Assembly: GCA_963754945.1 (NCBI GenBank)
Contig: CAVWIG010000036.1
Location: 1-36,284, forward strand
Reading direction: 5' to 3'
DNA from: Methanotrichaceae archaeon
GTDB taxonomy: Archaea > Halobacteriota > Methanosarcinia > Methanotrichales > Methanotrichaceae
Length of the DNA: 36,284 nt
Part shown: positions 1,751 through 22,933 of the stretch, piece by piece
Position numbering within the stretch: the first letter of the stretch is position 1
How the letters are laid out: the number at the start of each line of letters is the position of its first letter
Notes under the pieces: model-generated
Database searches by the model: none
What the model was told of the DNA's origin: nothing
The model's input: only the letters and a program-made list of their open reading frames with translations
Program-made: the position numbers and the translations under genes

Positions 1751-1910
1751 AAAAAAAGAGCAGCGCCCCGGTGAACATTGGTGTATGATGATTCGAGCAG
1801 GCACACCGGGGCGCATCTTTCATCTCATTTTGGTGTATTTACATGGCAAGTGGGCGCAGGAATCCAGACGGATCGGTAAAGGAGGATTTCCAATACGACG
1901 CTCACATCGG
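1751..1910 (-). ncRNA. Candidate sRNA A (anti-SD loop plus GC terminal hairpin)
   Basis: Minus-strand BRE/TATA-like CCAAAAGGTTTATTAC (1928-1943). CCTCCTTTACCG at 1874-1885 is closed by an ATTGG/CCGAT stem. An 11-bp inverted repeat GCGCCCCGGTG/CACCGGGGCGC (1763-1773/1804-1814) is followed by T7. The 5' end is estimated. Confidence 0.5.
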
Positions 1911-2092
1911 AGTGATGATCTTACTTAGTAATAAACCTTTTGGATATAGTAGCAACAAGCTAGGCAACACGATCCACAAGCGACGATTGGGATTGATGAC
2001 GATTTGGTCAGTACAAGGTCGGTACAAGGTCCGACAGGTCAGGAATAAGGCAAAGATATGCGGCTCGATGGTTATTTGGCCGTAAACCGCAG

Positions 2093-2400
2093 CTATTTTG
2101 GATACTGGGCCCTACTGGGTGCTTTTGGTGCAGGAACAATCGAATATACTATCAGTGCTGTGGCCCCTCTGGTCATACGGGTCATATCATTCCATCCAGC
2201 CTGACAGCCGCAAGGCAACCATTCGTAGTTGTCCGATTCATCGCCAATGTTCAGTTAAGTAGTTAAATTCATCATTTCTTCGATGTGTAAGGTTCCAATG
2301 TAGTCTTCGTCCTCGTATACCAGAGGTTTCCCAGACTGTTTTTGTGATGCCTATGCCTTCAGTCTCCTCTATGGTTGCACCGGTTATGCTTTCTTCCAAG
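2093..2400 (-). pseudogene. Decayed paralog of the adjacent secreted protein (Cys-rich C-terminus)
   Basis: Hand translation: ..EDEDYIGTLHIEEMMNLTT*...YEWLPCGCQAGWNDMT/YDQRGHSTDSIFDCSC, matching DEDYRG..PWLPCLCNTGWDDM..DQRYHSAKGFFDCTSC of 2660-3641. It contains a stop and a frameshift. The left boundary of homology is approximate. Confidence 0.7.
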
Positions 2401-2659
2401 CATCAGTATTACCCTGGAGAACGCCAATGTGAGCTCTGCCATTGGTTACGTTCTCAGAAACGTCCGTCAAAGTCGTGCTTGGATCATCCGCCTATTCCAG
2501 GGCGTTTACAAGAACGTCCAGCTTTTGTCAAGAGCATGAGCATATTCATTTCGTCTTCCAAGGTACTTATCACAATCGGACTTGCCCGAAAAAGTCTCCT
2601 GGACAGAACTAAAAACTGAGAAGATAGGGGAGATATCTTCCCCAGGCAATTTCCGGAAC

Positions 2660-3641
2660 CTAATTCTTGCACGGAGCTGGTGGCATACAGCTCGTGCAGT
2701 CGAAGAATCCCTTAGCGCTGTGGTATCTCTGGTCATGAATGGCCATGTCATCCCAGCCGGTATTGCAAAGGCACGGCAGCCATGGATAGTCTTCGTACGC
2801 ATAGCCTTCATAATTCTGATCGTAATCGGCATAATCTGTCGTCTTTACGATATTTACAGCCATCTTCTTGCTCAGATTGAAAGACCCCTCTATAATCTTC
2901 ATCCATCAACGCGGTGCTGTCGGCTTTGGAGTTAGGGATTCCAGCAATACCTCCTCTCACATCGTTGAGGGTTACACCCAGATGAGCCGAGCCATCGAAC
3001 CTGGAATTGATGTCCATGGTACTCCCTATGGTTGAATTCGTGGCACCTATAAATCCTCCATAGTCGTACACATCAGAGTTTAATGTCGTAGTAGTCTCTG
3101 TATCCAACTTCTTCGCGTAATCAAAGAGCGAGTTCATGGAGATTACGCCTGCGTGGTTTTTGGAATAGGTCTGATCCTTCCAAAGCGATTTTACGGCCTT
3201 GGTTTTGAAACTGCCCGGAAATTGGTATTTTATCTCTGAATAAACCGCGTTTGTATCATCTTTTGCCGTTATACTCTGACTGTTAGCTGCAAATTCGCCT
3301 GAATAGGTCCAAAAAGTATTGTTTTGAACTGAGATTGTGGAGTTGTGGCTATAAGCTCCGGTTCCACTGCGGAGAACTCTAAGATCAAGATTTTGTGACA
3401 TATCAGCAGGGTCAATAGTTGCAAAATTGTTGTTGATGTTGGCGAATCCGGTGCCTGAAACAGATTGATCATCTGCATAAATATAGTTTTCGATAATGGT
3501 TTCTGTATCCATTGTTTCGTTATTAACCCTCTCCTCATCTGCGACGTCTTCTGCTAGCGTGAACCCAATCATCTCAAAAGCCGGGATGAGAAGGATGAAG
3601 ACTAACACTAGAACTAGAATGCTGGCTCTCAATCTCAACAA
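2660..3641 (-). CDS. Secreted hypothetical protein with Cys-rich WLPC..GW..FDC C-terminus; frameshift near 2885
   Basis: Hydrophobic signal peptide, GAGGAGG RBS and many N-x-S/T sites. ORFs 2808-3641 and 2660-2902 join if one G is removed from a G run (DEDYRG|SFNLSKK). The downstream paralog confirms the C-terminal frame. Confidence 0.7.
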
Positions 3642-3794
3642 AATCCCTCCTCGGATTTCATGCGCACGAGTGTTTTGTATTTTCTCTATTTTAAGATATC
3701 CCTATTACGTAGGAATTTATCACATATTTATTTAGATTAGTAACACAAATAGGACTCACAATTCTCATGTCCCTTATATGATCTTCCAGGACTG

Positions 3795-3955
3795 AAAAAG
3801 GAGTTTAGCGCCCTGGAGAACCCCTGGGCGCTAGAGAGTTTATGGCGCATTGTCTTCGCCACGTTTATAGCTTCAGAGTAGTGAGCGTAGAGCTAATCTT
3901 GGACCCGATGTAGGCATAGGAGGTCATTGGTCATCTCTTTTGCTCGCGAGCAGTA
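3795..3955 (-). ncRNA. Candidate sRNA B or structured leader (four hairpins)
   Basis: Promoter CCAAAAAGCTTATTAC (3971-3986, minus). ACCTCCT (3918-3924) sits in the loop of a GACC..ATG/CAT..GGTC stem. TAGCT/AGCTA and TGGCG/CGCCA stems follow. The terminal TAGCGCCC/GGGCGCTA hairpin (3806-3833) is followed by CTCCTTTTT. Confidence 0.5.
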
Positions 3956-3970
3956 ATTTTACCTTACTTA

Positions 3971-3998
3971 GTAATAAGCTTTTTGGTATTTGTAGCAC
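3971..3998. promoter_or_regulatory. Candidate NikR operator GTAATA-N16-TAGCAC overlapping a minus-strand promoter
   Basis: 28-bp imperfect inverted repeat with the 6-16-6 geometry of NikR operators. It lies in the region divergent from the nickel ECF operon. Confidence 0.45.
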
Positions 3999-4169
3999 CA
4001 ATCGGGGGGATTTATGCAATTCAACAAAAGACCCAGCCTATTCTACCAGATTCCAAAATTCTATTTGATTCATTGGAGCTGTACTAATCGTATTGGAAGG
4101 ATTTCCTGAACCCCGATGGGTAACTTTTGTTAGCATCATTATATCAATTGTTCTTACTTAGTATTCCTT

Positions 4170-4197
4170 GCGATAACCTTTTATAACTAGATGTTAC
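4170..4197. promoter_or_regulatory. nikM promoter (TTTATA at 4180-4185) flanked by candidate NikR operator GCGATA-N16-TGTTAC
   Basis: The TATA box is ~35 nt before the nikM ATG, and the 6-16-6 half-sites straddle it. Confidence 0.45.
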
Positions 4198-4216
4198 TTA
4201 GCTGTTTGGTGAATTT

Positions 4217-4933
4217 ATGCACATTCCAGATGGCTATTTAGGGCCAAGTACGTATATTGCATTCTGGATCATTATGATCCCGATTTGGATTTATGCAGGA
4301 AAGAAATTGAGTACGCTCGGGTCGAGAAAGGTTCCTTTTCTAGCTCTGGCTTCTGCTTTCTCTTTTGTCATCATGATGTTCAATTTGCCTGTTCCGGGAG
4401 GTAGCAGTGGTCATGCCGTAGGTGGTGCCATAATTGGTATAGTTCTAGGGCCTTGGGCTGGAGTGATAACCATATCGGTTGCCCTGGCGCTGCAGGCGCT
4501 GATGTTCGGAGACGGAGGGATTACCACATACGCGACCAACTGCTTCAACATGGCAGTTTTGTGCCCTTTTATTGGATATTATGCCTACAAGCTCATTAGC
4601 GGAAACACAGAGATCGCATCATCTCGAAGAGTAATAGCCGCGGCCATTGCTGGCTGGGTTTCTCTCACAGCCGCAGCTACATGGGCAGGCTTTATTCTCG
4701 GATTGCAGCCCCTCTTATACAAGGATGCCAATGGACTTCCGCTTTATATGCCATATCCACTGAGCGTGTCTGTTCCGGCGATGTTCCTTGAGCATGGGAT
4801 GGCATTCTCTATCCTTGAGGCTTTAGTTACTGGTCTTATCTTTGCATATATCCAGAGAACGGATCCATCCCTAATCTATGGAGAGAAATCTGAAGAGCAG
4901 AAGAGCAGAGCCAAAGGAGCAGCACCATCCTGA
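4217..4933 (+). CDS. nikM: ECF transporter S component, NikM/CbiM family (nickel-type N-terminus)
   Basis: N-terminal metal-binding MHIPDGYL, PGGSSGH and FGDGG motifs, multiple TM helices. Confidence 0.92.
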   Translation: MHIPDGYLGPSTYIAFWIIMIPIWIYAGKKLSTLGSRKVPFLALASAFSFVIMMFNLPVPGGSSGHAVGGAIIGIVLGPWAGVITISVALALQALMFGDGGITTYATNCFNMAVLCPFIGYYAYKLISGNTEIASSRRVIAAAIAGWVSLTAAATWAGFILGLQPLLYKDANGLPLYMPYPLSVSVPAMFLEHGMAFSILEALVTGLIFAYIQRTDPSLIYGEKSEEQKSRAKGAAPS

Positions 4934-4942
4934 GGTGGGACC

Positions 4943-5242
4943 ATGGATAAGCTGGTAAGAAACTTGATGATTGGCCTGATCGCGCTGGTAATTCTGACGC
5001 CTCTCGGCTTGATAGCTTCAGGCACGGCATTCGGCGAATGGGGATCCGATGAGCTCAAAGATAAGTTCGGTTTTGTGCCCCAGGGCATAGAAAAGCTCTC
5101 GGGTCTCTGGAACGCCCCCCTCCAAGACTATGGCGTTCCCGGTCTGAATCCGACTATCGGATATTACATAGCGGCTGTGTTAGGCGTAGTGATATGCAGT
5201 GGTGTCCTGTACGTCGTGGGAAAGACGTTCATCAAAGGCTAG
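4943..5242 (+). CDS. PDGLE-domain accessory membrane protein (NikN-like)
   Basis: Two TM helices with LTPLGL..GTAFGEW...APLQDYGVPG between them. GAGGTGG RBS. Located between the M and Q genes. Confidence 0.85.
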   Translation: MDKLVRNLMIGLIALVILTPLGLIASGTAFGEWGSDELKDKFGFVPQGIEKLSGLWNAPLQDYGVPGLNPTIGYYIAAVLGVVICSGVLYVVGKTFIKG

Positions 5243-5316
5243 CGCCTAATTTTTTTTATTTGGTAATCTGAATTATAAATATTTGAGAGAAACCAGGCGA
5301 TAGGATTCAACATAGG

Positions 5317-6264
5317 ATGGAGAAAGATATGATCCCAGGTTGGATGAAAGAAGTAGATATTGGTCCTTGCAAGTGCTCTGCTGTGTATCACGGTAAGAAG
5401 GGCTTCATAGGGAGGACAATTGATGAAGTCTTCGAGTTCATCGAGAATGCATTTATCTCGGAAGGCTTCTCTAGGCGCAAAGGCCTGCTGCAGAGCCTTG
5501 ACCCTAGGACTAAGTTGATTTCTATCCTGGCCTTAATAGTCTCAATAAGTCTGGTGGGGAACCTAAAAATCCTAATAACGGTCTATTTATTTTTCCTATT
5601 ACTTGCATACCTAAGCAAGATCGAAGTAGGGTTTTTCATCAAGCGGGTATGGCTATTCATTCCCATCTTCTCAGGAATTATTGTCTTACCCTTGATCTTC
5701 AATGTCTTTTTCCCGGGTGACCCCCTCATTCAGCTTATATCTCTGTGGCCTGGTGCCCACCTGGGGCCGATTCCACTGCCCGAGAGCATCTACATTACCA
5801 GACAAGGTGTCAGTGCAGCGACGATATTTATGATGCGTGTTGCGACATGCGTTTCTGCTATAGTTCTACTATTTCTCACTACACCACAGCAGATGCTCTT
5901 TAAGTCCCTGCGCTCTGTTGGAGTTCCCAAGCTCTATGTTCTCACGGTAAGTATGGCCTACAGATACATCTTCGTGCTATCTGATCTGGTTCGCGAGATG
6001 TACGTCGCAAAGAGAGCCAGGACCATAAAATCCAGAAGCATGTTCGAGGAGCAGAAGTGGGTCGGAGGACGCATGGGATACACGCTTATAAGGTCTATTG
6101 ACACAGGCGCAAGAGTTCATATGGCCATGCTGTCCAGGGGCTACAACGGGGATGTGAAGATTTTGCAGGAGTTCAAAATGCGTAATCGCGATTATATCGT
6201 CGGGGCTGTTGCGCTATCCATGAGCATAGTGATAGCGTTGATCTCGACTAACATCATCCGGTGA
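5317..6264 (+). CDS. nikQ: ECF transporter T component NikQ/CbiQ
   Basis: LQSLDPRTK, MAYRYIF, AKRAR and AMLSRGY motifs. Confidence 0.92.
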   Translation: MEKDMIPGWMKEVDIGPCKCSAVYHGKKGFIGRTIDEVFEFIENAFISEGFSRRKGLLQSLDPRTKLISILALIVSISLVGNLKILITVYLFFLLLAYLSKIEVGFFIKRVWLFIPIFSGIIVLPLIFNVFFPGDPLIQLISLWPGAHLGPIPLPESIYITRQGVSAATIFMMRVATCVSAIVLLFLTTPQQMLFKSLRSVGVPKLYVLTVSMAYRYIFVLSDLVREMYVAKRARTIKSRSMFEEQKWVGGRMGYTLIRSIDTGARVHMAMLSRGYNGDVKILQEFKMRNRDYIVGAVALSMSIVIALISTNIIR

Positions 6265-6271
6265 TATTAGC

Positions 6272-7102
6272 ATGGAGACAATTTTTGATCTGAGGAATGT
6301 ATCATACGCATACGTAGGAAAGATCTATGCCTTAAAGGATGTCACACTTAAGATAGAACCAGGTGAGCAGTTATCCATAATCGGATCTAACGGTAGCGGT
6401 AAATCTACTTTGCTGGCCATCCTGGATGGGCTTGTATATCCTAGTGTTGGAGAATTCTATGCCTTTGACAATAAGATAATTGAAGAAGTTTTCGATGCCA
6501 TAAAAGATAATGATTTCAGGTCCTATTTCCGGACAAGAGTAGGCTTTGTCTTTCAGTCCTCGGATGTGCAGCTCTTTTCGCCGACTGTCTTTGAGGAGGT
6601 CGCGTTTGGACCTTTGCAGCTCAACATGACTCCGGATGAAGTCAAAACCAGAGTACTGGAGGTCTTGGAGATGATAGGAATCACTAAACTCAAAGATCGA
6701 TCGCCTCACACTCTGAGCGGAGGAGAAAAGAAAAAGGTCTGCATTGCCTCTGTCCTAGCTACAAATCCTGATATCCTTTTGTTGGATGAGCCTACTGCCG
6801 GATTGGATCCCAGAACCCAGCTCTGGCTGATAGAGCTACTTCAGGAGCTAGGAAAGACAGGAAAGACGATAATTACAGCTACTCATGACCTGGAAACAGT
6901 GGAGCAGATTAGCAAAAGAGCTATAGTTATGGGCGAAGACCATGGGATTGTAATAGACGGAGGTGCAGAAAAGGTGCTCGATAACCTGGAACTTCTACTT
7001 TCCGCGAATCTCATTCATGAACACATGCACATCCATGGCAAGCTAGTGCATGAGCATCTGCACGCCCACGATGAGGGGCATTTGCACATGCATGATACAT
7101 GA
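6272..7102 (+). CDS. nikO: ECF transporter ATPase NikO/CbiO with His-rich tail
   Basis: Walker A GSNGSGKST, LSGGEKK, LLLDEPT, THD. C-terminal HEHMHIHGKLVHEHLHAHDEGHLHMHDT. Confidence 0.92.
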   Translation: METIFDLRNVSYAYVGKIYALKDVTLKIEPGEQLSIIGSNGSGKSTLLAILDGLVYPSVGEFYAFDNKIIEEVFDAIKDNDFRSYFRTRVGFVFQSSDVQLFSPTVFEEVAFGPLQLNMTPDEVKTRVLEVLEMIGITKLKDRSPHTLSGGEKKKVCIASVLATNPDILLLDEPTAGLDPRTQLWLIELLQELGKTGKTIITATHDLETVEQISKRAIVMGEDHGIVIDGGAEKVLDNLELLLSANLIHEHMHIHGKLVHEHLHAHDEGHLHMHDT

Positions 7103-7439
7103 AGTTGTAACTGGCCTGCAAACATTCCAAATTTGCTGTAATTTCAAACAGGCCATACCAAAATTGGTCCCTAGTCCAGCGATATTCCCATAAGTCCCAA
7201 TCTAACTTAAGGAAAATCGAGACGATGCGAGTTGTTCCGTGATCCGCTCGCCTTCTCGATGTGGTTTGAGAATATCGCGTTTTTGCGAACTATCGCCCAA
7301 CTAGATAACAAGCTTTTTTTAATGCGTGTTACTTTATAAGATATCATGACGAAAAGTATTTGAAACATAACAATACTAGTGATAGTAGATAGTCAATACG
7401 ATATATTATAATAATTTTGGCTATCAGAAATTAAGGAAG

Positions 7440-7799
7440 ATGGTAGAAATGGATGAAACGCATGACCATAAGCATGAGCCCGAGAAGATGCACGAGCACG
7501 AGCATGAGCACGAAATAAAGCATGAGCACGAGCACGAGCATGAAGGCAAGACTCATGAGCACGAGCACGAACATGAAATAAAGCACGAACATGTGCATGG
7601 GGAAGAGGAAGAACATACTGATGAAAAGCACGACCATGAGCATGAGCCCGAGAAGATGCACGAGCACGAGCATGAGCACGAAATAAAACATGAGCACGAG
7701 CACGAGCATGAAGGCAAGACTCATGAGCACGAGCACGAACATGAAATAAAGCACGAACATGTGCATGGGGAAGAGGAAGAACATAAGAAAACTCAGTAA
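7440..7799 (+). CDS. His/Glu-rich low-complexity protein, putative metal storage or chaperone
   Basis: 119 aa with 38 His and 42 Glu by hand count. AAGGA upstream and AT-rich promoter-like region. Lies between metal transport genes. Confidence 0.8.
   Translation: MVEMDETHDHKHEPEKMHEHEHEHEIKHEHEHEHEGKTHEHEHEHEIKHEHVHGEEEEHTDEKHDHEHEPEKMHEHEHEHEIKHEHEHEHEGKTHEHEHEHEIKHEHVHGEEEEHKKTQ
7452..7787 (+). repeat. Near-perfect tandem duplication, 2 x 168 bp (56 aa), containing nested CAYGAR (His-Glu) repeats
   Basis: Units start at 7452 and 7620 and differ at only a few bases. Confidence 0.95.
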
Positions 7800-8082
7800 G
7801 AAGAATATTCGGAATAGTCCCTCCCGCAGAATAAAATCATTTCTCCTCAAAGATACCAGCCTGCTCAAGATGTGAGGTCTGATTTAGTGTGCCTTTCCGG
7901 CAGGCTGGTAAATTATTGCGTAATTAGGTATATCCAACTCCAACTTAAGAGAATCAATGAATATCATGAATTTGATGGAACTAGTGTGGATCACAGCGGA
8001 CGATTGAGTATCCTCGCGATATCTTTTGTAATGAATTCAAAGATATCTCATATCTCATGCATTAAGAGTTGGTGGAGAACGG

Positions 8083-10180
8083 ATGACAAAGGAGAACGGG
8101 AACCCAATGTTGCCTGAGATGGGGAAAGAACATAAAATGCATAGCAATGCCGAAGGCCACGAGGTGCAAAAGGCAAGCGAAGAACACACGATGCACCAGA
8201 TTGGGCAGCGCACGGGCAAACCCCATGAGATGCACCAAGGAAGACACGAAGGCCATATCACTGAGGACTTCAAAAGAAGATTCATAATCTCTCTTGTTTT
8301 GACTCTTCCCATCCTTGCCCTCTCTCCATTTATTCAGGACCTATTGAGATTTAGATTGGAGTTTCCAAGCTCGATCTATGCCTTGTTCTTGCTTTCCACG
8401 CTTCGTCTATTTCTATGGCGGATATCCATTCCTGAAGGGCTTATTCAATGAGATCAAGGAAAGCAACATCGGTATGATGACCTTGATCGCTACGGCGATC
8501 AGTTCCGCCTACTTTTACAGTTCGGCAGTGGTCTTTGGCCTCAAGGGAGAGGTCTTCTTCTGGGAGTTGGCCACCCTGATAGACATCATGCTTCTCGGTC
8601 ACTGGATTGAGATGCGTTCTGTGTTGGGCGCCTCCCGAGCCTTGGAGGAACTTGTCAAGATAATGCCCTCCGAAGCTCATCTGATAAGAGATAGCCAGAC
8701 GGTGGACGTCAAGGTTGAGGTGCTGAAGCCAGGAGACAGAGTCCTGGTCAAACCTGGAGAGAAAATGCCAGTCGATGGGGCTGTAATGGATGGAGAGACG
8801 AACGTTAACGAGTCGATGATGACAGGCGAATCAAAGCCGGTCACGAAAAAAGCAGGAGACAATGTGATAGGTGGCTCCATTAACGGCGAAGGCTCGATAT
8901 CCGTGGAGGTGAGAAAGATTGGATCCGAGACTTACCTTAATCAGGTCATTGAGCTCGTCAGGCAGGCCCAAGAGAGCAAGTCAAGGACCCAGGACCTGGC
9001 AGATAAAGCTGCTCGTTTGCTTACGATAATTTCTCTCAGTGTCGGCGCCATCACACTAGCAGCCTGGCTATTCTATGGCAGAGATTCCGCCTTCGCCGTT
9101 GAGAGGGCGGTCACAGTCATGGTCATTTCCTGCCCGCATGCTTTAGGTCTGGCTGTCCCACTGGTGGTTGCCGTCTCGACCTCTCTAGCAGCAAAATCAG
9201 GACTTCTAATCCGGAATAGACAGGCCTTTGAGAGGGCCAAAGACCTTCAGGCTGTGATCTTTGACAAGACAGGAACACTAACCGAAGGCCGATTTGGCGT
9301 CACCGACATCGTGCCTCTTGCGGAGCTGAATGAGAATGAGATTCTAGGACTAACCGCGTCCCTGGAAGCAAACTCGGAACACCCCATTGCGACTGGAATT
9401 ATCAACAGCTCGGAAGAGAAAGGAGTCGAGCTCGTCCAGATTCATGAGTTCAAAGCGATTCCTGGAAAGGGCATTGAAGGGCAGGTCCAAGGAAAAAGAT
9501 GGATGGTCGTGAGCCCCGGATACTTGCGAGAAAGAAAGATCGATCTCAAGGATGAACGGATAGATAAGCTGGCACAGCAGGGAAAAACAGTCGTTTTCCT
9601 GCTTGAAGAAAATAAGCCCATCGGAGCCGTTGCCCTGGCAGACATTATAAGAAAGGAATCCAGAGAGGCTATTGAGAAATTGAAGACGATGGGCATAAAG
9701 TGCATGATGCTCACCGGGGACAACAGGTTCGTGGCCGAGTGGGTGGCAGAAGATCTGGGCCTGGATGATTTTTTTTCCGAAGTTCTGCCTCATGAAAAAG
9801 CAGAGGCCATAAAGAAAGTTCAGAAAGATTACATCGTGGCCATGGTAGGGGATGGAGTCAACGATGCTCCGGCCCTAGTTCAGGCGGACGTAGGAATAGC
9901 TATTGGTGCAGGTACGGATGTAGCGGTCGAGTCGGCAGACATCGTGCTGGTGAGGAACGATCCTAGGGACGTAGCCTACATCATCGGCCTGTCGAGGAAG
10001 ACGTACTCCAAGATGTTTCAGAACCTGGTGTGGGCGACAGGCTACAACGCCTTAGCCATCCCATTGGCAGCAGGAATCCTTTACAGTTACGGGATACTCC
10101 TCAGCCCTGCGGTTGGTGCAATTTTAATGAGTGCCAGCACTGTAATCGTGGCCATAAACGCGAGATTACTCAAGATGTAA
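8083..10180 (+). CDS. copB: P1B-3 copper-exporting P-type ATPase (CopB); +1 frameshift near 8400
   Basis: His-rich N-terminus, TGES, CPHALGLA, DKTGT, GDGVND, GYN, MSAST. Removing one base at ~8401 gives ..LLST|FVYFYGGYPF and joins the two ORFs. Confidence 0.9.
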
Positions 10181-10233
10181 TAGCGGAATAGCGAACTAGC
10201 TCGTTCAAAATCAGTTCATCGGAATTGAGAATC

Positions 10234-12007
10234 ATGATTGCAATAGACCCTATTTGCGGGATGCCTGTAGATACAGAAAAAGCGAAATTCAAAGCCGAGG
10301 TCAGAGGCGGAGTTTATTATTTCTGTAGCGAAGAGCATAGGCGCAATTTTTTGGAAGGTTCCAAGATCGCCTACTTCTCCATGGAAATAGGAATAGAAAG
10401 CGATATACCAACTTACAGCGGCGGGCTTGGCGTGTTGGCAGGCGACTCGTTGACGTTCCTGTGCAGATCTGAGAATTCCCCTCGTAGCTGTGACCCTCGT
10501 GAGTAAGAAAGGCTTTGTCAGACAGCAGATAACCGAAATAGGGGACCAGAAAGAGCATCCTGACGATTGGGACCCGTCCAAGTTCATGAGGCTACTACTA
10601 GATACAGTGACGGTTCGGATCGATGGCAGAGATGTAAAGATAAAATCCTGGCTCCATGACCATAAGAGTCCGGCTGGCGGACTGGTTCCCGTTCTCTTAT
10701 TAGATACCGACCTCGGAGAGAATTCACTTGAAGACAGGGAAATAACCAGTTACCTATATGGAGGGGACGAAAGGTACAGGTTGAAACAGGAGATGGTCCT
10801 TGGAATCGGCGGCATGAGAATGCTGGAAGCATTGAACTTCAAGATCAGTAAATACCATATGAACGAGGGGCATTCAAGCTTCTTAACCCTGGAGCTGATG
10901 AAAAAGAACGGCATGGATGCTGACAGGACAAGGGACCTCTGCATTTTCACGACTCATACGCAAGTCGAAGCGGCCTTTGACAAGTTCTCTTACGATGATG
11001 CTCATGCCATCTTGGGAGCAGAATTCCCCCAAGAAGAGCTGAAAAGGTATGCTGGGCCGGACAGGTTGAACATGACCCTTCTTGCCTTAAACCTGAGCAA
11101 ATACGTAAACGGAGTCACCAATGCTCATATGGAGTACTCCAAGATGCTCTTTCCGGGTTATCATTTAAGGGCTATAACAAATGGAGTTCATCCTTATACC
11201 TGGACGTGCCAACCTTTCAGGGAGCTTTTCGACAAGTATATTCCTGGATGGGCAAACGAGCCCGAGCTGCTGGTTAGGGTTGATGAGATTCCCCACCAAG
11301 AAATATGGAATGCCCATATTAATGCCAAGAAATCTCTGATCGATTACATCAACGAGAGTACCGAAGCGGGCATGGACGTTAACGTTCTGACGTTGGGCTT
11401 CGCGCGGAGGGCTACTGCATACAAACGAGCGACATTGATATTCTCGGATTTGAACAGGCTGAGGGACATAAACAAGATTGGAAAGTTACAGCTCATCTTT
11501 GCGGGAAAGGCACATCCCAGAGACGAAGCAGGAAAGCGTATTATCAAAGAGATCTACAACTACCGTTCCCAGTTAAGAGGAGACATCAAGATAGTCTACC
11601 TCGAAAATTACAATATGAAGCTAGCGGGCAAGTTAACCTCGGGCGTGGATGTATGGCTGAACACCCCACTGCCGCCCAACGAGGCATCCGGCACAAGCGG
11701 TATGAAAGCGGCTTACAACGGTGTCATGAACTTCAGCGTTCTAGATGGCTGGTGGATCGAGGGCTGCATAGAGGGCGTCACTGGATGGGCTATAGGCCCA
11801 AAGCCTAGAGAACCAATGAGTGAGGGAGAAAGAAGAGCCCGCGAGCTGAAAGATCTATACAATAAGCTGGAATATCTTGTTATCCCTGCATTCTACAATA
11901 ACAGAGATGCATGGACGTATCTGATGAGGAACTCGATAGGGAAGATTGCTTATTACTTCCACAGCCATAGGATGATGCGAAGATACGCCACAGAAGCTTA
12001 TCTTTAG
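10234..12007 (+). CDS. glgP: Alpha-glucan (glycogen) phosphorylase with N-terminal YHS/TRASH domain; +1 frameshift near 10453
   Basis: DPICGM...YYFCS (YHS) reads in frame into [19 protein letters not shown]. Downstream are [19 protein letters not shown] and EASGTSGMK (PLP lysine). Removing one base gives GDSL|[15 protein letters not shown]. Confidence 0.9.
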
Positions 12008-12155
12008 ATCATGCTTCAACTATCCGGGAAAGACAAAAACCTCCTAAACACTCCTCTGGCTGACTGGTTTTTCTGGTACTTCACTTAAAGATTCATCGAC
12101 AACTGCCAGTTTGGGCAAATCCGCATCAAGACAGCAATCAGGCTAATGCAAGCCA

Positions 12156-12305
12156 CTAGATAGCTTTGAGCCCTGCTCCGATGATCAGCAAAATTAAGCC
12201 GATAGCACCGACAACGACGGCTAAAACGTGCAGCTGCGGGATGGCACCACCTGCAATTATCGCAAAAACGAGTAGTGCGAACCCTACTCCTATTGAAGAT
12301 TTCAT
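12156..12305 (-). CDS. Small two-TM membrane protein (49 aa)
   Basis: GGAG precedes the ATG at 12305. MKSSIGVGFALLVFAIIAGG..LAVVVGAIGLILLIIGAGL. Confidence 0.55.
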   Translation of the reverse strand: MKSSIGVGFALLVFAIIAGGAIPQLHVLAVVVGAIGLILLIIGAGLKAI

Positions 12306-12683
12306 AATTCTCCAATCTAATTTGCCTTTACTTCCCGTATGATGCAGAAATGATTTCATATTATTTCATTATAACTTTTAGTATATCATTGCTACGATAG
12401 GCCTTCCAGGCCAATCCGTGACATCGTGTTTTTTTCGCACCATCTCGATTTGGCCTAACTATCGGTTTTCGATAAGACTCTGCTTCTACATAAGTTGTAG
12501 CGAAAAGTACATAAATTATAAGCTTTATCACTAAATTAGTAACAACATTTGGTTTGTCGGCTTCCAGATCCTATCTGTTAAGAATTCTGCATTTGCCTTG
12601 CTCGCTATGCAGGAGGGGTAAGATGGCTGAAAAGAAGATAAGAAATTTAACGCCAACAACCCAGGCGATAAGATGAGGTGGAT

Positions 12684-13058
12684 ATGATGAATCATCCTGA
12701 CCGCGCATTCTCCTTCGCGAAGATTAACGGCAAAGTTGACCTGATAAAGGCAATGTTCAACCATAAATGGCCTCTTTGCTACAGCTTTTATCATGATAAA
12801 CTGCTCTACTTGAGCGATGGTGAAAGTGAGGATACTCCGGAATACGCTGTTATGACTATTGATAAGACGGAGGGGCGCTTCAGCATTCACGGCCGCGAGG
12901 TAGGAAGAGTCAAGCCCGCTGCCATGCAGGCTGCAGAGGTGGCAAGGTTAATCCAAGAAATAAATACGAACGCTCACAATGGCGGGATTTCAGTTAGGGT
13001 TACGGCTGAGCCCAAATGGCATCATAGTTGCCCGCTTTGTCGGTTGGAGGAGGAGTAG
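12684..13058 (+). CDS. Hypothetical protein with C-terminal HHSCPLC motif
   Basis: GAGGTGG RBS before the ATG at 12684. T-rich terminator after the stop. CxxC near the C-terminus. Confidence 0.7.
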   Translation: MMNHPDRAFSFAKINGKVDLIKAMFNHKWPLCYSFYHDKLLYLSDGESEDTPEYAVMTIDKTEGRFSIHGREVGRVKPAAMQAAEVARLIQEINTNAHNGGISVRVTAEPKWHHSCPLCRLEEE

Positions 13059-13320
13059 CGCCTTACTTGCCATTATTTTTTTGTTTTTTGTTTACTCATG
13101 ATCGAACTCAGGATATACAAACCTTAGAGGTTCCCAATGCGATTCAAATTAATAATATCATAGATAAATTATCAATTAGCATTACATATGTATAGAAGGA
13201 TTATATGACGTTAAAATTTAGCTCCGTTGTACCGTCCTGGCAAATGTCTAACAAAGCGTTTCCTTCCTAATCATTAGTCGAAGCGATGCAGAATTCTAAG
13301 AACAGGAGGTTTAATTAGAA

Positions 13321-13719
13321 ATGGAAACTAATTGTTTAAACATACTAATAGCTGAGGACGACTCTTTTAACCAAAAAGTGATTGTGATTGTGCTCAAGAA
13401 GTTGGGTATTCCGGCAGATATAGCCCGTAATGGTGTAGAGGTCATTCAAGCCCTGGAGAGAAAAACCTATGCGATAATACTCATGGACATTCAGATGCCA
13501 TACATGGATGGAATAGAAGCTACGAGGACTATTCGAGAGCGCTGGTCTCACGGCCCCAAAATCATAATGATTACAGGGTGCGCTCCGGATATATATAGAA
13601 AACTTTGTTTTGATGCCGGAGCAAACGAATTTTTGTCAAAGCCAGTACGGATAAAAGAGCTTATCGATGCAATTGAACGCTACATGCCAAATACATTGGA
13701 GGAGAGCCAAAGCGCCTAG
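13321..13719 (+). CDS. Stand-alone CheY-like response regulator (receiver domain)
   Basis: ILIAEDD, LMDIQMPYMDG, IT, FLSKP motifs. AGGAGGT RBS. Confidence 0.92.
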   Translation: METNCLNILIAEDDSFNQKVIVIVLKKLGIPADIARNGVEVIQALERKTYAIILMDIQMPYMDGIEATRTIRERWSHGPKIIMITGCAPDIYRKLCFDAGANEFLSKPVRIKELIDAIERYMPNTLEESQSA

Positions 13720-14242
13720 ACCTTTAATTTTGCACTTTTGTATCGTACCGCAGTCTTGTGGCCAAAGAATAGACAGCAAAATTTATCGGCAATAGCGCCA
13801 CATGACTAGGATTATGAGTTGCTACCAATATGCCTATTAATTGTAACTACAATGCCTTAGATTCCTTAATAACTCCTGGTCCTAAAAATACCGTGCTTTT
13901 TATGTTGCAGACGCACTAAGACTCAAGAAAGTTGGGCTGCCATAAGAGATCATGCGCGATGCATTACTGAGATAATTATGATCGCGCGGAAGGAATACAC
14001 GAAAGATCTATCTTCTCATCGAGTGTGGTTCTTAGTTTCGGTTTGCTTACACATCTTCTCGATAACGGATCGATTCTTCAGATAATAACAGTTCTTGGTA
14101 ATACTAATTGTTCATTGAAAAAAATGTAAGGCTAATATTTATGCGCGAAATTCTGTTCTTTGCTACAAATAGTCATCACTTTCATCTAAGAAATTGAGCT
14201 ATTTTCTTGATAATGCCCATCGAAAGCATTTTATAGTCAAAA

Positions 14243-14452
14243 TTACAAGACTAGATTATCAAATACTGAAACCGGAGGTGAATCCAAATGTGTTGCCATA
14301 CAGATGATAAGCATGAACATGCCCATGAGCACAACGGCAAGCCCCACGTCCACGAGCATATTCACGATGCAGAGCACAAGCACGAGCATAAGTGCTGCCA
14401 TTAAGGGATAATTTCGCCAAGAATTTTTAAAAATAGTAGCCGCTGACATCAT
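14243..14452 (-). CDS. Possible small membrane protein
   Basis: Two hydrophobic stretches; no clear RBS or family motif. Confidence 0.3.
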   Translation of the reverse strand: MMSAATIFKNSWRNYPLMAALMLVLVLCIVNMLVDVGLAVVLMGMFMLIICMATHLDSPPVSVFDNLVL

Positions 14453-14562
14453 CTGGGCAGCTTGTCCAGAAGATGCCAGAGCTTATCTTCTATCGTTATG
14501 GTTACAGTTGATCAAAGCTCTAGGAGCTTTTGGTCCTAATTTTCGCGTGTTTGAAACGTTTC

Positions 14563-14742
14563 CTACGGCGTAAAGAAGACTTCCATCATGCTGAGAGGGT
14601 TATTCTTTCTATCTACCACAAGGACTTCATCTCCATCCTCTATTCCCGGATCAGATGCAACCACTTGCCCGGAGAAGAGGCGTCCTCCTCTGGCCACGAA
14701 GGGAATTGCTTCGTCCGAAACCACTACCTTCCGGATAGGCAT
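14563..14742 (-). CDS. Stand-alone PUA-domain protein (59 aa)
   Basis: KVVVSDEAIPFVARGGRLFSGQVVASDPGIEDGDEVLVVD matches the PUA domain of archaeal TGT-like proteins. AAGGTG precedes the ATG at 14742. Confidence 0.8.
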   Translation of the reverse strand: MPIRKVVVSDEAIPFVARGGRLFSGQVVASDPGIEDGDEVLVVDRKNNPLSMMEVFFTP

Positions 14743-14811
14743 TTCATTACACCTTTCTGTTTCTGACATGTACACTCTCCATTTTGGGTTTATTCTATCT
14801 AATCTTATTAA

Positions 14812-14839
14812 GTAATAAGCTTTTCGAATTTATTTTTAC
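14812..14839. promoter_or_regulatory. Candidate NikR operator GTAATA-N16-TTTTAC overlapping the PUA gene promoter
   Basis: Inverted repeat with one mismatch and exact 16-bp spacing, overlapping minus-strand GAAAAGCTTATTAC. Confidence 0.55.
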
Positions 14840-15021
14840 GAGAATAGCCGAGGTTCATCTGGTCCTTACCAGTGATAATTGATGTGTAGATAGTGAAATC
14901 ATTTTCCGAACGGAATTTCTTTTAGGCCCATGTTGATAGTGATCACATTCTGATCGTAACTTCATTAGCAGTCATTTCTGTTACTTTAGGCGAAATACTT
15001 ATTAACTAGTATTATCATCTG

Positions 15022-15123
15022 AGGTTGAAGAGCGACACAGCAGGACGACACGGCCTCCTTTACCGTTGAAAGAAACCTGTTGCAATGCCCTGGAAGTCTG
15101 CCTATCCAGGGCGCTCCTCTTCT
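15022..15123 (+). ncRNA. Candidate sRNA C (anti-SD loop plus GC terminal hairpin)
   Basis: Promoter-like CGAAATACTTATTAA at ~14991-15005. Outer stem CAGCAGG/CCTGTTG. Inner hairpin ACGG[CCTCCTTTA]CCGT (15050-15066). GCCCTGGA/TCCAGGGC hairpin (15087-15112) followed by a pyrimidine tract. Confidence 0.5.
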
Positions 15124-15172
15124 GAAATAGCATGCTAAGGGCCTACATCAATCAATGAGGTTATGCATCGCT

Positions 15173-15454
15173 ATGACCGATTTGATAATCACCGACATCA
15201 GAAAAAGCGGTTTCAATAACGACTTTGATTTGATCACAGCTATAATTCTTGGTAAAAAGAATTGCAGGTACCATCGGTCCTGTTCCATGTCGAGAAAGAG
15301 CCGCGAAGGTTTATTGGTTTTAGAGAGCACAACAGCCGATAAGGAGCTTCCAGCGATCGGTGTGAGAAAAGGAGATCAGTTTATTCATATGTGGGCAAAG
15401 CCCGGCCATGGGCTGGAAGTCGGCGAAGAGATAAGATTGGATGACACAATATGA
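15173..15454 (+). CDS. Hypothetical protein
   Basis: GAGGT upstream and protein-like composition. Convergent with nikR. Start could be 15155. Confidence 0.55.
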   Translation: MTDLIITDIRKSGFNNDFDLITAIILGKKNCRYHRSCSMSRKSREGLLVLESTTADKELPAIGVRKGDQFIHMWAKPGHGLEVGEEIRLDDTI

Positions 15455-15477: not shown

Positions 15478-15909
15478 CTAGAGATCTTTGCCTAGCGAAG
15501 TAGTAGTAAGCTTAACGTGTTTTACGCCCTTCAGGGCCATCATCTTTTCAGTTGCTAATTTCACATCCTGGCCTTCGCCCCTGAGGACTATTACTTCCAA
15601 ACAGTTGTCATGGTCTAAATGAACATGCATACTGGACTTGATTATGCTTCCGAACTCGTGCTGTATCTCAGTGAGGTTGCCCTCAAGGCCTCTTTGTGCA
15701 TGAGAGTAAACAATAGTTATCACGCCCACGCGTTCACCTTGGACGTCGCTCATCCACTCATAGCTGACTATGTAGTTTCTGATGGCGTCCCTGATGCCTT
15801 CCGAGCGGGAAGAATAGCCGCGCTGAAGAATTATCCCATCGAAATTCTTCAGCAAATTCTCCGGCAATGAAACACCGATTCTGTTGATGTCTTGTTCCAT
15901 ATTACTCAT
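15478..15909 (-). CDS. nikR: Nickel-responsive transcriptional regulator NikR
   Basis: Ribbon-helix-helix RIGVSL..GYSSRSEGIRDAIR. Ni ligands in IQH..HVHLDHDNCLEV. Start could be 15900. Confidence 0.97.
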   Translation of the reverse strand: MSNMEQDINRIGVSLPENLLKNFDGIILQRGYSSRSEGIRDAIRNYIVSYEWMSDVQGERVGVITIVYSHAQRGLEGNLTEIQHEFGSIIKSSMHVHLDHDNCLEVIVLRGEGQDVKLATEKMMALKGVKHVKLTTTSLGKDL

Positions 15910-16126
15910 GTAAGTGATAATGTTATATAGTAATAAACTTTTTGGAAGAGCTGAAATGTTCTGCTAATAGCAGAATTTCCATTAATGCAATTCCCTAAAG
16001 CCACTAGAAGCATTTCGTAGTGCCATACTGACTTTGAGCTGGAAATGAAAACCTGCCTTTCTTTGAAGCCAAGCGAAAAATTTAAATTATCCTTACTCGA
16101 AACAGACATTTTAAAAGGTAATAAAA

Positions 16127-18887: not shown

Positions 18888-19583
18888 ATGCATATAATGG
18901 AGGGATTCTTGCCGCTCAACTGGTGCGTGTTCTGGTATGCACTCGCGCTGCCAGTGGTGGCTTATGGTGCTTACAAGATGAGCAAATTAATTAAAGCGAA
19001 CCGCGATGTTCTGCCCTTACTTGCGGTATCCGGCGCCTTCATCTTCGTTCTCTCTTCCCTTAAGATGCCGTCCGTTACGGGAAGCTGCTCTCATCCTACT
19101 GGAACAGGCATGGGAGCGATACTCTTCGGGCCGTGGATTACTTCTGTCCTATCAATCATAGTCCTGATCTACCAGGCCATATTTCTGGCTCACGGCGGCC
19201 TGACCACATTGGGAGCCAACACCTTCTCCATGGGTATAGTTGGTCCAATCATGGGCTATCTGGTCTATAAAGGCGCCATGAAGTGGAATGTGAATATGTA
19301 CATCGCCGTATTTCTGGCGGCGTTAATCGCGGATTGGGCCACATATATTGTTACATCCATCGAGCTTGCTGTGGCCTTCCCCGCCGCTTCAGGAGGAGTG
19401 CTGGCATCTTTCGAGGCCTTCCTGGCTGTCTTTGCCATAACCCAGGTTCCTCTGGCCATAGTGGAGGGAGCCGTAACTGCACTCATGTTCAAATACATCG
19501 TCCAGCTCAGAAGCGATGTTTTGCTAAAGCTAAATGTGGCGTCTCCCAGCATTATTAATAAGCTGAAGGAGATGTCGGTATGA
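18888..19583 (+). CDS. cbiM: Cobalt ECF transporter S component
   Basis: MHIMEGFLP, PSVTGSCSHPTG, AHGGLTTLGAN. Confidence 0.96.
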   Translation: MHIMEGFLPLNWCVFWYALALPVVAYGAYKMSKLIKANRDVLPLLAVSGAFIFVLSSLKMPSVTGSCSHPTGTGMGAILFGPWITSVLSIIVLIYQAIFLAHGGLTTLGANTFSMGIVGPIMGYLVYKGAMKWNVNMYIAVFLAALIADWATYIVTSIELAVAFPAASGGVLASFEAFLAVFAITQVPLAIVEGAVTALMFKYIVQLRSDVLLKLNVASPSIINKLKEMSV

Positions 19584-19903
19584 AGATGGAACTCATTGTT
19601 GTTGCAATCCTTCTGATATTCATCGGTGCCTTCGCTTATGTTAGCTCAACAGGAAATCACGAATGGAGCGGGTCTGACGATCAGGCCGGGAACGTAATAG
19701 ATAAATTGACCGGAGGAACCTACGTGCCCTGGGCTCATAGTGTATGGACGCCGCCTAGCGCTGAAATAGAGAGCCTGCTCTTCGCCTTGCAGGCGGCCTT
19801 CGGCGCTATTATCATCGGCTATTTCCTGGGTTACTACCGCGGCTTGGCGAAGGGTAAAGCTGCCGCAACTTCAGAGAAGCAAAAAGGAAATTTGAATGCA
19901 TGA
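19580..19903 (+). CDS. cbiN: Cobalt ECF transporter component CbiN
   Basis: WSGSDD..YVPW...PPSAEIESLLFALQAAFGA..IGYFLG; ATGA overlap with cbiM. Confidence 0.95.
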   Translation: MKMELIVVAILLIFIGAFAYVSSTGNHEWSGSDDQAGNVIDKLTGGTYVPWAHSVWTPPSAEIESLLFALQAAFGAIIIGYFLGYYRGLAKGKAAATSEKQKGNLNA

Positions 19904-20678
19904 CCTGCTAGATGACTACGCCCATTCCAATGCTCTGAGAGACACAAGTCCGAGGCTAAAGCTGCTGCTTGGCCTCGGTGCCATCCTCATTTGCGTTGCC
20001 TCAGCCACACCGATAGCGCCTTTATTCATAGCCGTAACCATGAGCCTCATTACAGTTAGGTTGGCCAAAATTCCAGGGCGTTTTTACTCCACTCTGCTGC
20101 TATTACCCTTCTCATTCTCCATTCTGAGCGCCGCAGTAGTGGCCTTCATGCATGGCGGAGGCAGTTCATTATTTGCCTTTAACGTCTTCGGCATCAGCTT
20201 GGGCATCCGAGAAGAAGGAGCCAACCTGGCTTTGCTTCTGATTTCCAGGACCTTTGGGGGCATGTGCTCCCTATTCTTCATAGCCCTGACAACGCCCATG
20301 CTAGAGATCTTCTCGATCCTGAAGTCCCTGGGTCTGCCGGACTTCTTGGTCGAGCTTTCCATGCTGATGTACAGGTACATCTTTGTTTTTGTGGATCAGG
20401 CTGCCGTAATCCATAGTGCCCAAGTGATGCGGTTGGGAGACGCAGGAGTCAAAAACTCTCTGAACTCCTTCTCCATGCTTTCGAGCGTCCTATTCTTGAG
20501 GGCGTGGGAGCAGGGCGAGAGACTCATCGTAACTATGGACGCTCGCTGTTACGATGGCAAGCTCGATCTCATGGAGCAGTCCGGTAAGGCAGGGCCGAAG
20601 GCAACCTTTGCCGTGATGGGCTATATGGCCGTGATTGCCGCCATTGCTGTTTTGACTCGAGGCATCCAACTGTTGTGA
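19896..20678 (+). CDS. cbiQ: Cobalt ECF transporter T component
   Basis: LMYRYIF, AQVMRLG, MDARCYDG. Confidence 0.95.
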   Translation: MHDLLDDYAHSNALRDTSPRLKLLLGLGAILICVASATPIAPLFIAVTMSLITVRLAKIPGRFYSTLLLLPFSFSILSAAVVAFMHGGGSSLFAFNVFGISLGIREEGANLALLLISRTFGGMCSLFFIALTTPMLEIFSILKSLGLPDFLVELSMLMYRYIFVFVDQAAVIHSAQVMRLGDAGVKNSLNSFSMLSSVLFLRAWEQGERLIVTMDARCYDGKLDLMEQSGKAGPKATFAVMGYMAVIAAIAVLTRGIQLL

Positions 20679-20684
20679 GGTTAC

Positions 20685-21926: not shown

Positions 21927-22933
21927 TGTCGCATGAAGGACACATGCACGATGAAGAAAGCCATTGCGGCCATCATCATGTTCATGGAGTCGTAGATCCC
22001 TCCATGCTGGCTACTCAAAAAGGGATCTCGACCGTCAAATGGTCCTTTATTGTGCTGATAGCAACGGCCTTAGTCCAGATGACGGCAGTCTCGTATACAG
22101 GAAGTGTCGCTCTTCTCGCGGATATGATTCACCATTTCGGCGATGCCGCTACTTCTATTCCTCTCTGGATAGCCTTCGCCCTGGCACATCGCAGGCCCAG
22201 CAAACAGTTTACCTACGGTTACGGCCGAGTAGAGGATCTAGCTGGTATGGTCATTGTGCTCCTCATCCTCTTCAGTGTCATTGTTGCCAGTTACGAATCC
22301 ATCAACAGACTTTTTCATCCACAGGTGGTCGATCACCTCTGGGCAGTGGCGCTGGCATCTCTGGTCGGCTTCATCGGCAACGAGGTCGTTGCTTTTTATC
22401 GATGCCGTACAGGGAAAAATATCAACAGTGCTGCTCTGGTCGCTGACGGCTGCCATGCCCGAGTTGACGGCCTGACCAGTCTGGCGGTCTTCCTTGGTGC
22501 CCTTGGTGTCTGGCTTGGCTATCCCTGGGCAGATCCCTTTATCGGAGTCATCATCACCTTTGCCATCCTTGGTATCGTCTGGAGTTCTGTGAAGGTGGTA
22601 TTCTGTCGCCTTATAGACGGAGTGGACCCAGCGGTGGTGGATGAGGTCAAGGAGGCCGCAAGTCATGTTTCAGGCGTGAAGGAGGTCACCAATGTTCGAG
22701 TGAGGTGGCTGGGACACCAGCTTCATGCTGAAATTGACTTGGCTGTGTCCGATGATCTCCCTGTGAAGGAGGGGCACGAGATCGCCAAAGAGGTACAACA
22801 CCAGCTTATGCATCATCTGAGCTACCTTTCCAGAGCCACCATCCACGTCGATCCATTAAGAGCTTCGGGAGAGGAGAATCACCATGTGGGTGAGCACAGC
22901 CATGGATACTTGCCCCCTCACTTGCATCTCTGA
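21926..22933 (+). CDS. Cation diffusion facilitator (CDF) transporter with His-rich termini
   Basis: SVALLADMIHHFGD, YGYGRVEDL, ADGCHARVD, IHVDP. TGATG overlap with cbiO; GTG at 21923 is an alternative start. Confidence 0.93.
   Translation: MSHEGHMHDEESHCGHHHVHGVVDPSMLATQKGISTVKWSFIVLIATALVQMTAVSYTGSVALLADMIHHFGDAATSIPLWIAFALAHRRPSKQFTYGYGRVEDLAGMVIVLLILFSVIVASYESINRLFHPQVVDHLWAVALASLVGFIGNEVVAFYRCRTGKNINSAALVADGCHARVDGLTSLAVFLGALGVWLGYPWADPFIGVIITFAILGIVWSSVKVVFCRLIDGVDPAVVDEVKEAASHVSGVKEVTNVRVRWLGHQLHAEIDLAVSDDLPVKEGHEIAKEVQHQLMHHLSYLSRATIHVDPLRASGEENHHVGEHSHGYLPPHLHL

Follow-up and report, generated by a model that had tools for sequence, protein, structure and literature searches.

A conserved structured RNA family with two architectures in Methanothrix-type methanogens, its NikR-like promoter box and its putative anti-Shine-Dalgarno loop

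What are the three intergenic elements that lie among the metal-homeostasis genes of a Methanothrix-type methanogen, and are they RNAs that act on other messages? The window, by which we mean the whole stretch of DNA analysed, is a contig of 36,284 nucleotides (nt), C36, from the assembly of a Methanotrichaceae archaeon (GCA_963754945.1; 2.97 Mb in 54 contigs, 48% G+C). Its gene content, as assigned with Pfam, is that of a metal-homeostasis neighbourhood, and one of its proteins has homologues labelled Methanothrix. A first-pass annotation, made from the letters alone, described three elements, A, B and C, as sharing one layout, with a BRE/TATA-like promoter (BRE, transcription factor B recognition element), a CCUCC motif in a hairpin loop, a GC hairpin and a pyrimidine tail. 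It proposed that they could be small RNAs (sRNAs) with anti-Shine-Dalgarno (anti-SD) loops, controlled by the regulator NikR, that form a nickel-sparing layer, and it suggested conservation and covariation of the structure, an Rfam scan and a search of the ribosome-binding sites (RBSs) of nickel-enzyme operons as checks. Masking of this kind is known from a methanogen: according to a review, sRNA154 and sRNA41 of Methanosarcina mazei use anti-RBS hairpin loops to cover the RBSs of central-metabolism mRNAs, namely acetyl-CoA decarbonylase/synthase (ACDS) and glnA2 (PMC5867862).

We find that the three elements belong to one family of conserved structured RNAs, specific to the lineage of Methanothrix-type methanogens and not catalogued before. 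BLAST searches of 41 related genomes yielded matches to C in six of them, to A in four and to B in three. When aligned, seven C-like sequences, which come from six genomes, share a GCCUCCUUUACC block without variation, a hairpin rich in GC and the tail CCUCUUC. From these sequences we built a covariance model (R1), which detects this short type, about 98 nt long, in 43 of the 105 genomes of the family, in 27 of the 64 high-quality genomes and in 7 of 16 genera. R1 recovers neither A nor B, even with filters off at E<=5; weak 150-nt R1 matches in genus g2 do resemble A. These long-type g2 copies have, in order, GUGRGCG, a loop with CCUCCUUUACC and CGCUCAC; they continue with a spacer rich in A and a long hairpin that contains CUGCCAUU internally, and finish with the tail GCGCUCCUCUUCUG. 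A second covariance model (R2), made for the 5' domain of this long type of about 150 nt, likewise has matches in 43 of the 105 genomes and 7 of the 16 genera, with none in genus g8 (0/16) or g6 (0/7). Since A and B are missed by R1 and found by a separate model, the family comprises two architectures with common motifs, a short one (C) and a long one (A and B), and the single layout first ascribed to the three elements has to be abandoned. Either type is present in 62 of the 105 genomes and both in 24, at one to three copies per genome.

The motifs common to the two types are unpaired. The loop CCUCCUUUACC is invariant, and this CCUCC-containing loop is the most conserved part of the RNA; with CUGCCAU and the tail motif CUCCUCUUCUG, which are also conserved and unpaired, it forms a set of three motifs that are retained although the scaffold differs between the short and the long type. 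Rfam 15 holds no such family: over the 36,284 bases no model matched at its gathering score, including those for C/D box sRNAs and for the NiCo (czcD) riboswitch, which is likewise a structured RNA found by metal-homeostasis genes. In E-value mode, only chance-level C/D snoRNA matches (E 3.3-5.8) were obtained over C and nothing over A or B, the weak matches scoring 12-22 bits against gathering scores of 41-100. We rejected a C/D-box identity, as the snoRNA matches are below threshold and the CUGA of the tail is not constant. In the literature available for searching, no relevant paper on Methanothrix sRNA, or on Methanothrix small RNA and nickel, was among the titles listed.

Pairing in the stems is maintained by compensatory change. 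In 31 short-type sequences, aligned by fitting to the covariance model (a procedure that favours structure), 87.5% of cells pair as against 78.9% in shuffles, and 13 of 21 pairs show double-sided change where shuffles give 6.4; none of the 500 shuffles attains the observed values, and slid-register controls pair at 38-54%. The double changes affect all 7 pairs of helix P2 and 6 of the 7 pairs of P3. The outer helix P1 shows no covariation, a point against our best explanation. In the long type, 7 of 23 consensus pairs have double changes over 19 copies, and many G-U/G-C switches work on one strand only. The structural conservation expected by the first-pass annotation is thus present in both types. 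A generic repeat or terminator, the alternative that it had named, is ruled out by the copy number of one to three per genome and by strand-specific covariation that includes G-U pairs.

We may also ask whether these sequences are RNA elements at all, as opposed to duplicated promoter or operator DNA followed by ordinary terminators, or short peptide genes. The promoter block is indeed duplicated at a protein-coding gene as well (14801-14841), and a short open reading frame (ORF) starting with MNDVPWP can be read in many long-type copies. However, the compensatory changes are double-sided, with G-U pairs valid on one strand only, and conservation sets in where transcription is predicted to start rather than within the operator. 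The MNDVPWP frame meets the conserved tail in all three phases over 19 copies, being shifted by 1-nt indels, and the AUG-initiated frame of C is missing from the g2 short type; we therefore discarded the coding readings of the long type and of C. This whole alternative seems very improbable, and is already largely refuted.

Within the window, element C (15026-15127, plus strand; R1 match of 109.8 bits) represents the short type. Its P2 pairs 15038-15044 with 15076-15082 and encloses the loop CCUCCUUUACC (15054-15064), its P3 pairs 15087-15094 with 15105-15112 around the loop CUGCCUA (15098-15104), and its tail CUCCUCUUCUGAAA spans 15114-15127. Element A (1751-1905, minus strand; R2 match of 57.5 bits, E 1.3e-10) is a long-type RNA with a 5' hairpin at 1850-1905 (GUGAGCG...CGCCCAC) that presents CCUCCUUUACC at 1875-1885; an A-rich spacer, a GC hairpin at about 1763-1813 and a T7 run at 1751-1757 follow on the 3' side. 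Element B (3795-3947, minus strand; R2 match of 41.7 bits, E 1.2e-6) is a diverged long-type RNA, with the loop GACCUCCUAUGCC (3913-3925) in a 5' hairpin at 3881-3947, a 3' hairpin ending in CCAGGGCGCU (3807-3816) and a T5 run at 3795-3799. Its counterpart in the sister genome G002 is 82% identical over 203 nt and again lies beside a gene for a 277-amino-acid (aa) secreted protein and cbiM.

All the strings that the first-pass annotation had listed for A, B and C are found where it placed them. Counted on both strands of the 2.97-Mb genome, the 12-mer CCTCCTTTACCG has two copies, in A and C only, the 14-mer TTACTTAGTAATAA of the promoter has two, in A and B only, and TCCAGGGCGCT has nine. The motif CC[AG]GGGCGCT has 22 copies, with a matching upstream arm only in the three of the window; read by eye, the other 19 look like chance matches inside coding sequence. 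Single-sequence folding yields z-scores of -2.55 for A, -1.34 for B and -1.41 for C relative to shuffles. This is weak support by itself, and it is the relatives that establish the structure.

The conservation of the elements extends to their promoters. We built a 41-nt weight matrix from 47 promoter fragments of relatives and found four strong sites only in the genome, the next best scoring 12.9 bits. The promoter blocks of A (1917-1957, minus strand; 51.2 bits, the best of the genome), C (14976-15016, plus strand; 41.4 bits; conserved in all aligned relatives) and B (3960-4000, minus strand; 39.2 bits) are the top three, in keeping with the BRE/TATA-like promoter first seen at each element. 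The fourth (14801-14841, minus strand; 27.6 bits) precedes a small PUA-domain ORF, not an RNA element. The consensus of the RNA copies is TATTGcTACtAaAAgCAAAAagtTTATTAactAGTAAtATC, in which a 7-mer ending in AC is followed by N14, TTATTAC, N2-3 and GTAAYA; the 7-mer is GTAACAC in copies from genera g4 and g5 (GTAACAC-N14-TTATTAC) and TTGCTAC or TTAATAC elsewhere. The promoter of A reads TTGCTAC, N14, the TATA-like TTATTAC and then TAAGTAAG, and that of C reads GTTAC, the BRE/TATA sequence CGAAATACTTATTAAC and then TAGTATTATC. In both types, about 29-31 nt separate the first T of the TATA from the onset of the conserved RNA sequence; the usual distance from TATA to start in archaea is about 30 nt.

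Could this box be a NikR operator? Published NikR signals have the form GTGTTAC-N13/14-GTAACAC or its reverse (PMC545781), and NikR sites upstream of nikMNQO in methanogens were predicted earlier, as cited in a later paper (PMC10617489). Compared with these operators as there described (PMC545781), the RNA box likewise has 7-mers ending in TAC or CAC at a 14-nt spacing, and exact GTAACAC half-sites occur in the g4 and g5 RNA copies and in several nikR promoters. It differs in that its second half-site, TTATTAC, coincides with the TATA and that an inverted GTAAYA follows after 2-3 nt; the resemblance is inexact, and the repeat is often direct, not inverted.

The promoters of nikR genes contain related sequences. 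The core TATTACTA occurs in 39 of 42 sampled nikR promoters (15 genera) versus 0.18% of random 106-nt windows, and TATTAC-N2-3-GTAATA, within 2 mismatches, in 24 of the 42 versus 0.6% of such windows. In the source genome, the nikR promoter (about 15913-15946) carries TTTATTACTATATAACA, which matches the promoter of A, and the nikR promoters of genomes G005 and G041 read TTATTACTAAGTAACA. In the sister genome, a nikM/cbiM promoter (G002:C209) carries the complete box, and the transcript predicted from it would begin like C, with TGAAGAGCGAC. The source-genome cbiM promoter fits the box loosely only. Several observations speak against a common operator. Where the RNA promoters have their upstream 7-mer at N14, those of nikR have TTCAGA, and with the full 41-nt matrix neither the nikR nor the cbiM promoter of the source genome scores above 12 bits, so that only the TATA-proximal box is common to both. 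Furthermore, among the loci compared, nikR lies within 1.5 kb of the RNA in the source genome only. Because the box is like NikR operators and is common to nikR promoters, the RNAs are probably repressed by Ni-NikR; on this reading of promoter sequences, NikR control is plausible, and we lean towards it without great assurance. A shorter core, TTATTA[AC]?C[TA]A, was rejected as a regulon marker, its 94 sites being too common. An additional promoter-like site, CAAAAAGTTTATTAACTAAGTAAT, was observed at C31:28921 (plus strand), before a gene for a secreted protein; it is without the upstream 7-mer.

If the loop is an anti-SD sequence, which message might it meet? Its complement, GGTAAAGGAGG, occurs nine times in the genome, and two of these occurrences are the antisense of A and C. 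Two of the nine stand at RBS positions, one at an 88-aa ORF and the other 8 nt before the GTG start of mcrB, whose product was identified by an MCR_beta match of 452 bits. Complementarity between the loop and the mcrB RBS, GGUAAAGGAGG, is perfect over 11 of 11 nt, and the full 11-mer is present at 2 of 804 GGAGG-type RBS-like sites versus 0.5 expected. For the loop alone, the duplex with mcrB reaches -19.0 kcal/mol and is tied for rank 1 among 4506 sites (mean -8.1, standard deviation 2.2). The invariant loop sequence lies in the apical loop of a covarying hairpin, and the mcrB site is exact in 69 of 78 evaluable relatives, G094 and G049 being left out for incomplete or masked sequence. A site at cdhB, AAGGAGG-N8-AUGGCAG, matches the loop core together with CUGCCAU, and is one of 15 GGAGG...ATGGCAG sites.

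The mcrB match was noticed after the fact, and the following results make the pairing less credible. The site is kept in 42 of 45 genomes with the RNA versus 27 of 33 without a detected RNA; being equally conserved in both, it provides no independent support for a target. The loop never varies, so that no compensatory change is available, and the extra A of the mcrB site in g5 is not followed in the RNA. When full-length RNAs were ranked with RNAduplex without accessibility, mcrB came 2240th (C), 1306th (A) and 3807th (B) of 4506 sites; we judge this ranking uninformative rather than negative, as GC-rich chance duplexes dominate it. In addition, no RBS in the genome matches the complement of the variant loop of B, whose sequence is CCUCCUAUGCC. 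The other conserved motifs, CUGCCAU and the tail, have no outstanding RBS partner either, with mcrB at ranks 3185 and 2177. A 10-nt match to B's loop near mcrB was dismissed, as it falls inside the mcrD coding region. For the nickel-enzyme RBSs that the first-pass annotation wished to see searched, there is thus a candidate in sequence terms, the 11/11-nt complementarity at mcrB. To judge from these sequence matches, mcrB may be the true target, although this seems doubtful. In the mcrB leader (C18:97988-98030, minus strand), we also observed that about 30 nt of upstream sequence (CUGCUAAAAAGGUAAAGGAGGAUAAAGAAC) are almost invariant in 15 genera, a conservation that exceeds what the SD core needs.

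Whether the RNAs are free molecules or leaders of a downstream gene depends on the type. A terminator-like hairpin with a T-run was called by the tool in A (1769-1757), the only such call in the three elements. None was called for C, and C and the g2 copies terminate in CUCUUCUG, without a T-run. Downstream of C lies a conserved gene for a protein of 93 aa (15173-15454, plus strand). Of the 48 short copies, 35 precede this gene by 45-55 nt without a T-run or an obvious promoter in the interval, an arrangement equally compatible with a cis leader and with a free sRNA, and three more are followed by its degenerate remnants. In 13 of the 48 the gene is absent, one of these copies preceding a cbiM promoter in genome G001. 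The long-type copies, including A, have no conserved downstream gene. The lack of a common gene behind the long type and the called terminator of A are points for free RNAs. C and most short copies stand in the position of a leader, and C would be, at least in part, the 5' leader of the 93-aa gene; its status as an independent sRNA is doubtful.

These data raise the possibility that the short type works in cis alone, as a leader or riboswitch that senses a metal or a metabolite, or sequesters the SD sequence, for the 93-aa gene, A and B being decayed or orphaned duplicates. The position of the 35 short copies directly upstream of the gene and the lack of a called terminator after C are what such a leader would show, as are conserved unpaired nucleotides combined with covarying stems; in g2, moreover, the spacer and start region are conserved and fold into a predicted hairpin (GAUCAU...AUGAUC) that encloses the SD sequence and AUG of the gene. 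However, the long-type copies, which occur in 43 of the 105 genomes, have kept their promoters intact without sharing a downstream gene and so are maintained, not decaying, and a role confined to the gene does not account for the 13 short copies that lack it, the one before the G001 cbiM promoter among them. The invariant bases lie in apical loops and in the tail, not in a junction pocket, and the two types retain the three motifs on different scaffolds. Alifold on the leader and start region detected no conserved pairing of the anti-SD element with the SD sequence, and no Rfam riboswitch model matches. We consider a purely cis-acting leader rather unlikely. The overall pattern fits RNAs with conserved loops that contact something in trans, the short form being also read through into a co-regulated gene, although C itself may have a purely cis role.

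The partner contacted could also be a protein or the ribosome: CCUCCU-type motifs might mimic the 3' end of 16S rRNA, or the RNA might form a platform for a PUA-domain protein or for the 93-aa protein, without specific mRNA targets. Two of the pyrimidine motifs resemble the anti-SD sequence, and the three motifs are invariant over 16 genera, more strictly than most sRNA seeds. The gene behind the fourth promoter block (14563-14742, minus strand) encodes a PUA domain (PF01472, 36.3 bits against a cut-off of 24.8), an RNA-binding fold, under the same promoter block as the RNAs. The ORF would encode a stand-alone protein of 59-70 aa, and several other genomes have homologues of it near the short-type RNA; it may be part of the RNA's regulon or bind the RNA itself. 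Against such a binding role, the PUA connection is one of neighbourhood only, and the 93-aa protein, for which Pfam and NCBIfam gave no match, yields a five-strand beta fold (predicted local distance difference test, pLDDT, 74) with only generic beta-barrel matches in VIA-align (best Z 5.5). With Foldseek, nothing in the PDB matched this model at E<=0.001, and the best protein-atlas score, 0.76, is a lead only. Thirty-one homologues of the 93-aa protein were found, all unnamed or hypothetical and one labelled Methanothrix; as far as the search reached, they occur only in Methanothrix-like genomes, and the invariant positions comprise one His, two Gly and a small number of others. A binding RNA without mRNA targets appears quite improbable.

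Our best explanation, offered tentatively and at somewhat less than an even chance when taken as a whole, is a two-form RNA family repressed by NikR and pairing in trans with the mcrB RBS, the short form also serving as a leader. Each copy would be transcribed from its own BRE/TATA promoter inside a NikR-like box, to which Ni-NikR would bind as a repressor, and the RNAs would thus be made when nickel is scarce. The invariant 11-nt loop CCUCCUUUACC would most likely pair in trans with SD regions. The best candidate partner would be the RBS of mcrB, which opens the operon for methyl-coenzyme M reductase (MCR), an Ni-F430 enzyme; by pairing there, the RNA may match the translation of MCR to the nickel available. 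Besides this, the short form would act as, or read through into, the 5' leader of the 93-aa gene. A more specific version has the loop clamp the mcrB RBS at low nickel, and possibly RBSs of the carbon monoxide dehydrogenase/acetyl-CoA synthase (CODH/ACS) operon such as that of cdhB, as a nickel-sparing layer by which nickel-enzyme synthesis would track the nickel and F430 supply; this version as a whole we find unlikely. The NikR-controlled anti-SD sRNAs of the first-pass annotation thus find partial support: the RNA, its loop and its promoter kinship are real, and C would be, in part at least, the leader of a gene.

The surrounding genes are largely those of metal transport. An operon of cbiM, a gene for a PDGLE-domain protein, cbiQ and cbiO (4217-7102, plus strand; Pfam) runs divergently from B and is likely an energy-coupling factor (ECF) importer for nickel or cobalt. 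A P-type ATPase gene follows at 8378-10180, a second operon, cbiMNQO, at 18888-21926 and a cation-efflux gene at 21923-22933. The window thus has two ECF-type cbiM operons (4217-7102 and, with the cation-efflux gene, 18888-22933): in the first, the PDGLE-domain protein stands in for CbiN; the second encodes a true CbiN and has the cation-efflux gene after it. Probably one of them serves nickel and the other cobalt. No RNA-type promoter block was found upstream of the second operon (18888-22933). Downstream of B and divergent from cbiM, both here and in G002, lies a gene (2808-3641, minus strand) for a 277-aa protein that has a membrane segment at its N-terminus and matched no family; this protein could be an extracytoplasmic accessory of the transporter. 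We also noted a His-rich ORF of 38 aa (14288-14404, plus strand) with Cys-Cys-His at each end, overlapped in antisense by a hydrophobic ORF of 69 aa (14243-14452, minus strand), so that only one of the two can be real; Pfam has no match for either. A nickel-binding His-rich peptide would fit the metal neighbourhood.

The nikR gene itself (15478-15909, minus strand; RHH and NikR_C domains, Pfam NikR_C E 9.2e-33) is convergent with the 93-aa gene. It is one of two nikR paralogues in the source genome, the other being at C8:22847-23266, with a mutual identity of 82%. Two nikR genes are also present in many g2 and g4 genomes, and one in g6 and most g8 genomes. In G041, three long-type RNA copies flank one nikR paralogue within about 4 kb. 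In G002 (contigs C33 and C136), the match to the 93-aa gene is limited to residues 1-47 and nikR consists of two adjoining fragments, which may reflect disrupted genes or assembly errors.

How do these RNAs compare with known systems? RyhB is a Fur-controlled bacterial sRNA that works with Hfq. It follows the same logic of a metal repressor acting on an sRNA and is unrelated to the present family in sequence and structure. NikS of Helicobacter pylori is reported to be a NikR-repressed sRNA with the same logic, from metal repressor to sRNA to translation of other mRNAs; it is bacterial, unrelated in sequence and structure, and targets virulence factors. Unlike that of NikS and RyhB, the metal control of the present family is deduced solely from a shared promoter box. 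In M. mazei (PMC5867862), sRNA41 and sRNA154 are, like our RNAs, intergenic RNAs with an anti-RBS loop in a methanogen of the same order; they are controlled by nitrogen and not by a metal regulator. The present family differs from them in having two architectures, a short form fused to a protein-coding gene and mcrB as its proposed target. Of these systems, sRNA154 and sRNA41 are nearest in mode of action, and NikS and Fur/RyhB nearest in logic.

Even on a cautious reading, our analysis provides two covariance models for a new structured RNA, with about 100 instances of it, and a NikR-box candidate refined for the Methanothrix family; it also places a conserved 93-aa gene and a PUA-domain gene in the same presumed regulon. 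If the proposed circuit is true, it would extend the logic of RyhB and NikS to archaea, and would be the first metalloregulator-sRNA circuit described there that acts on methyl-coenzyme M reductase. It would then tie nickel sensing to translation of the methane-releasing enzyme MCR in archaea that are major producers of biogenic methane, the acetoclastic methanogens prevailing in digesters, rice fields and wetlands.

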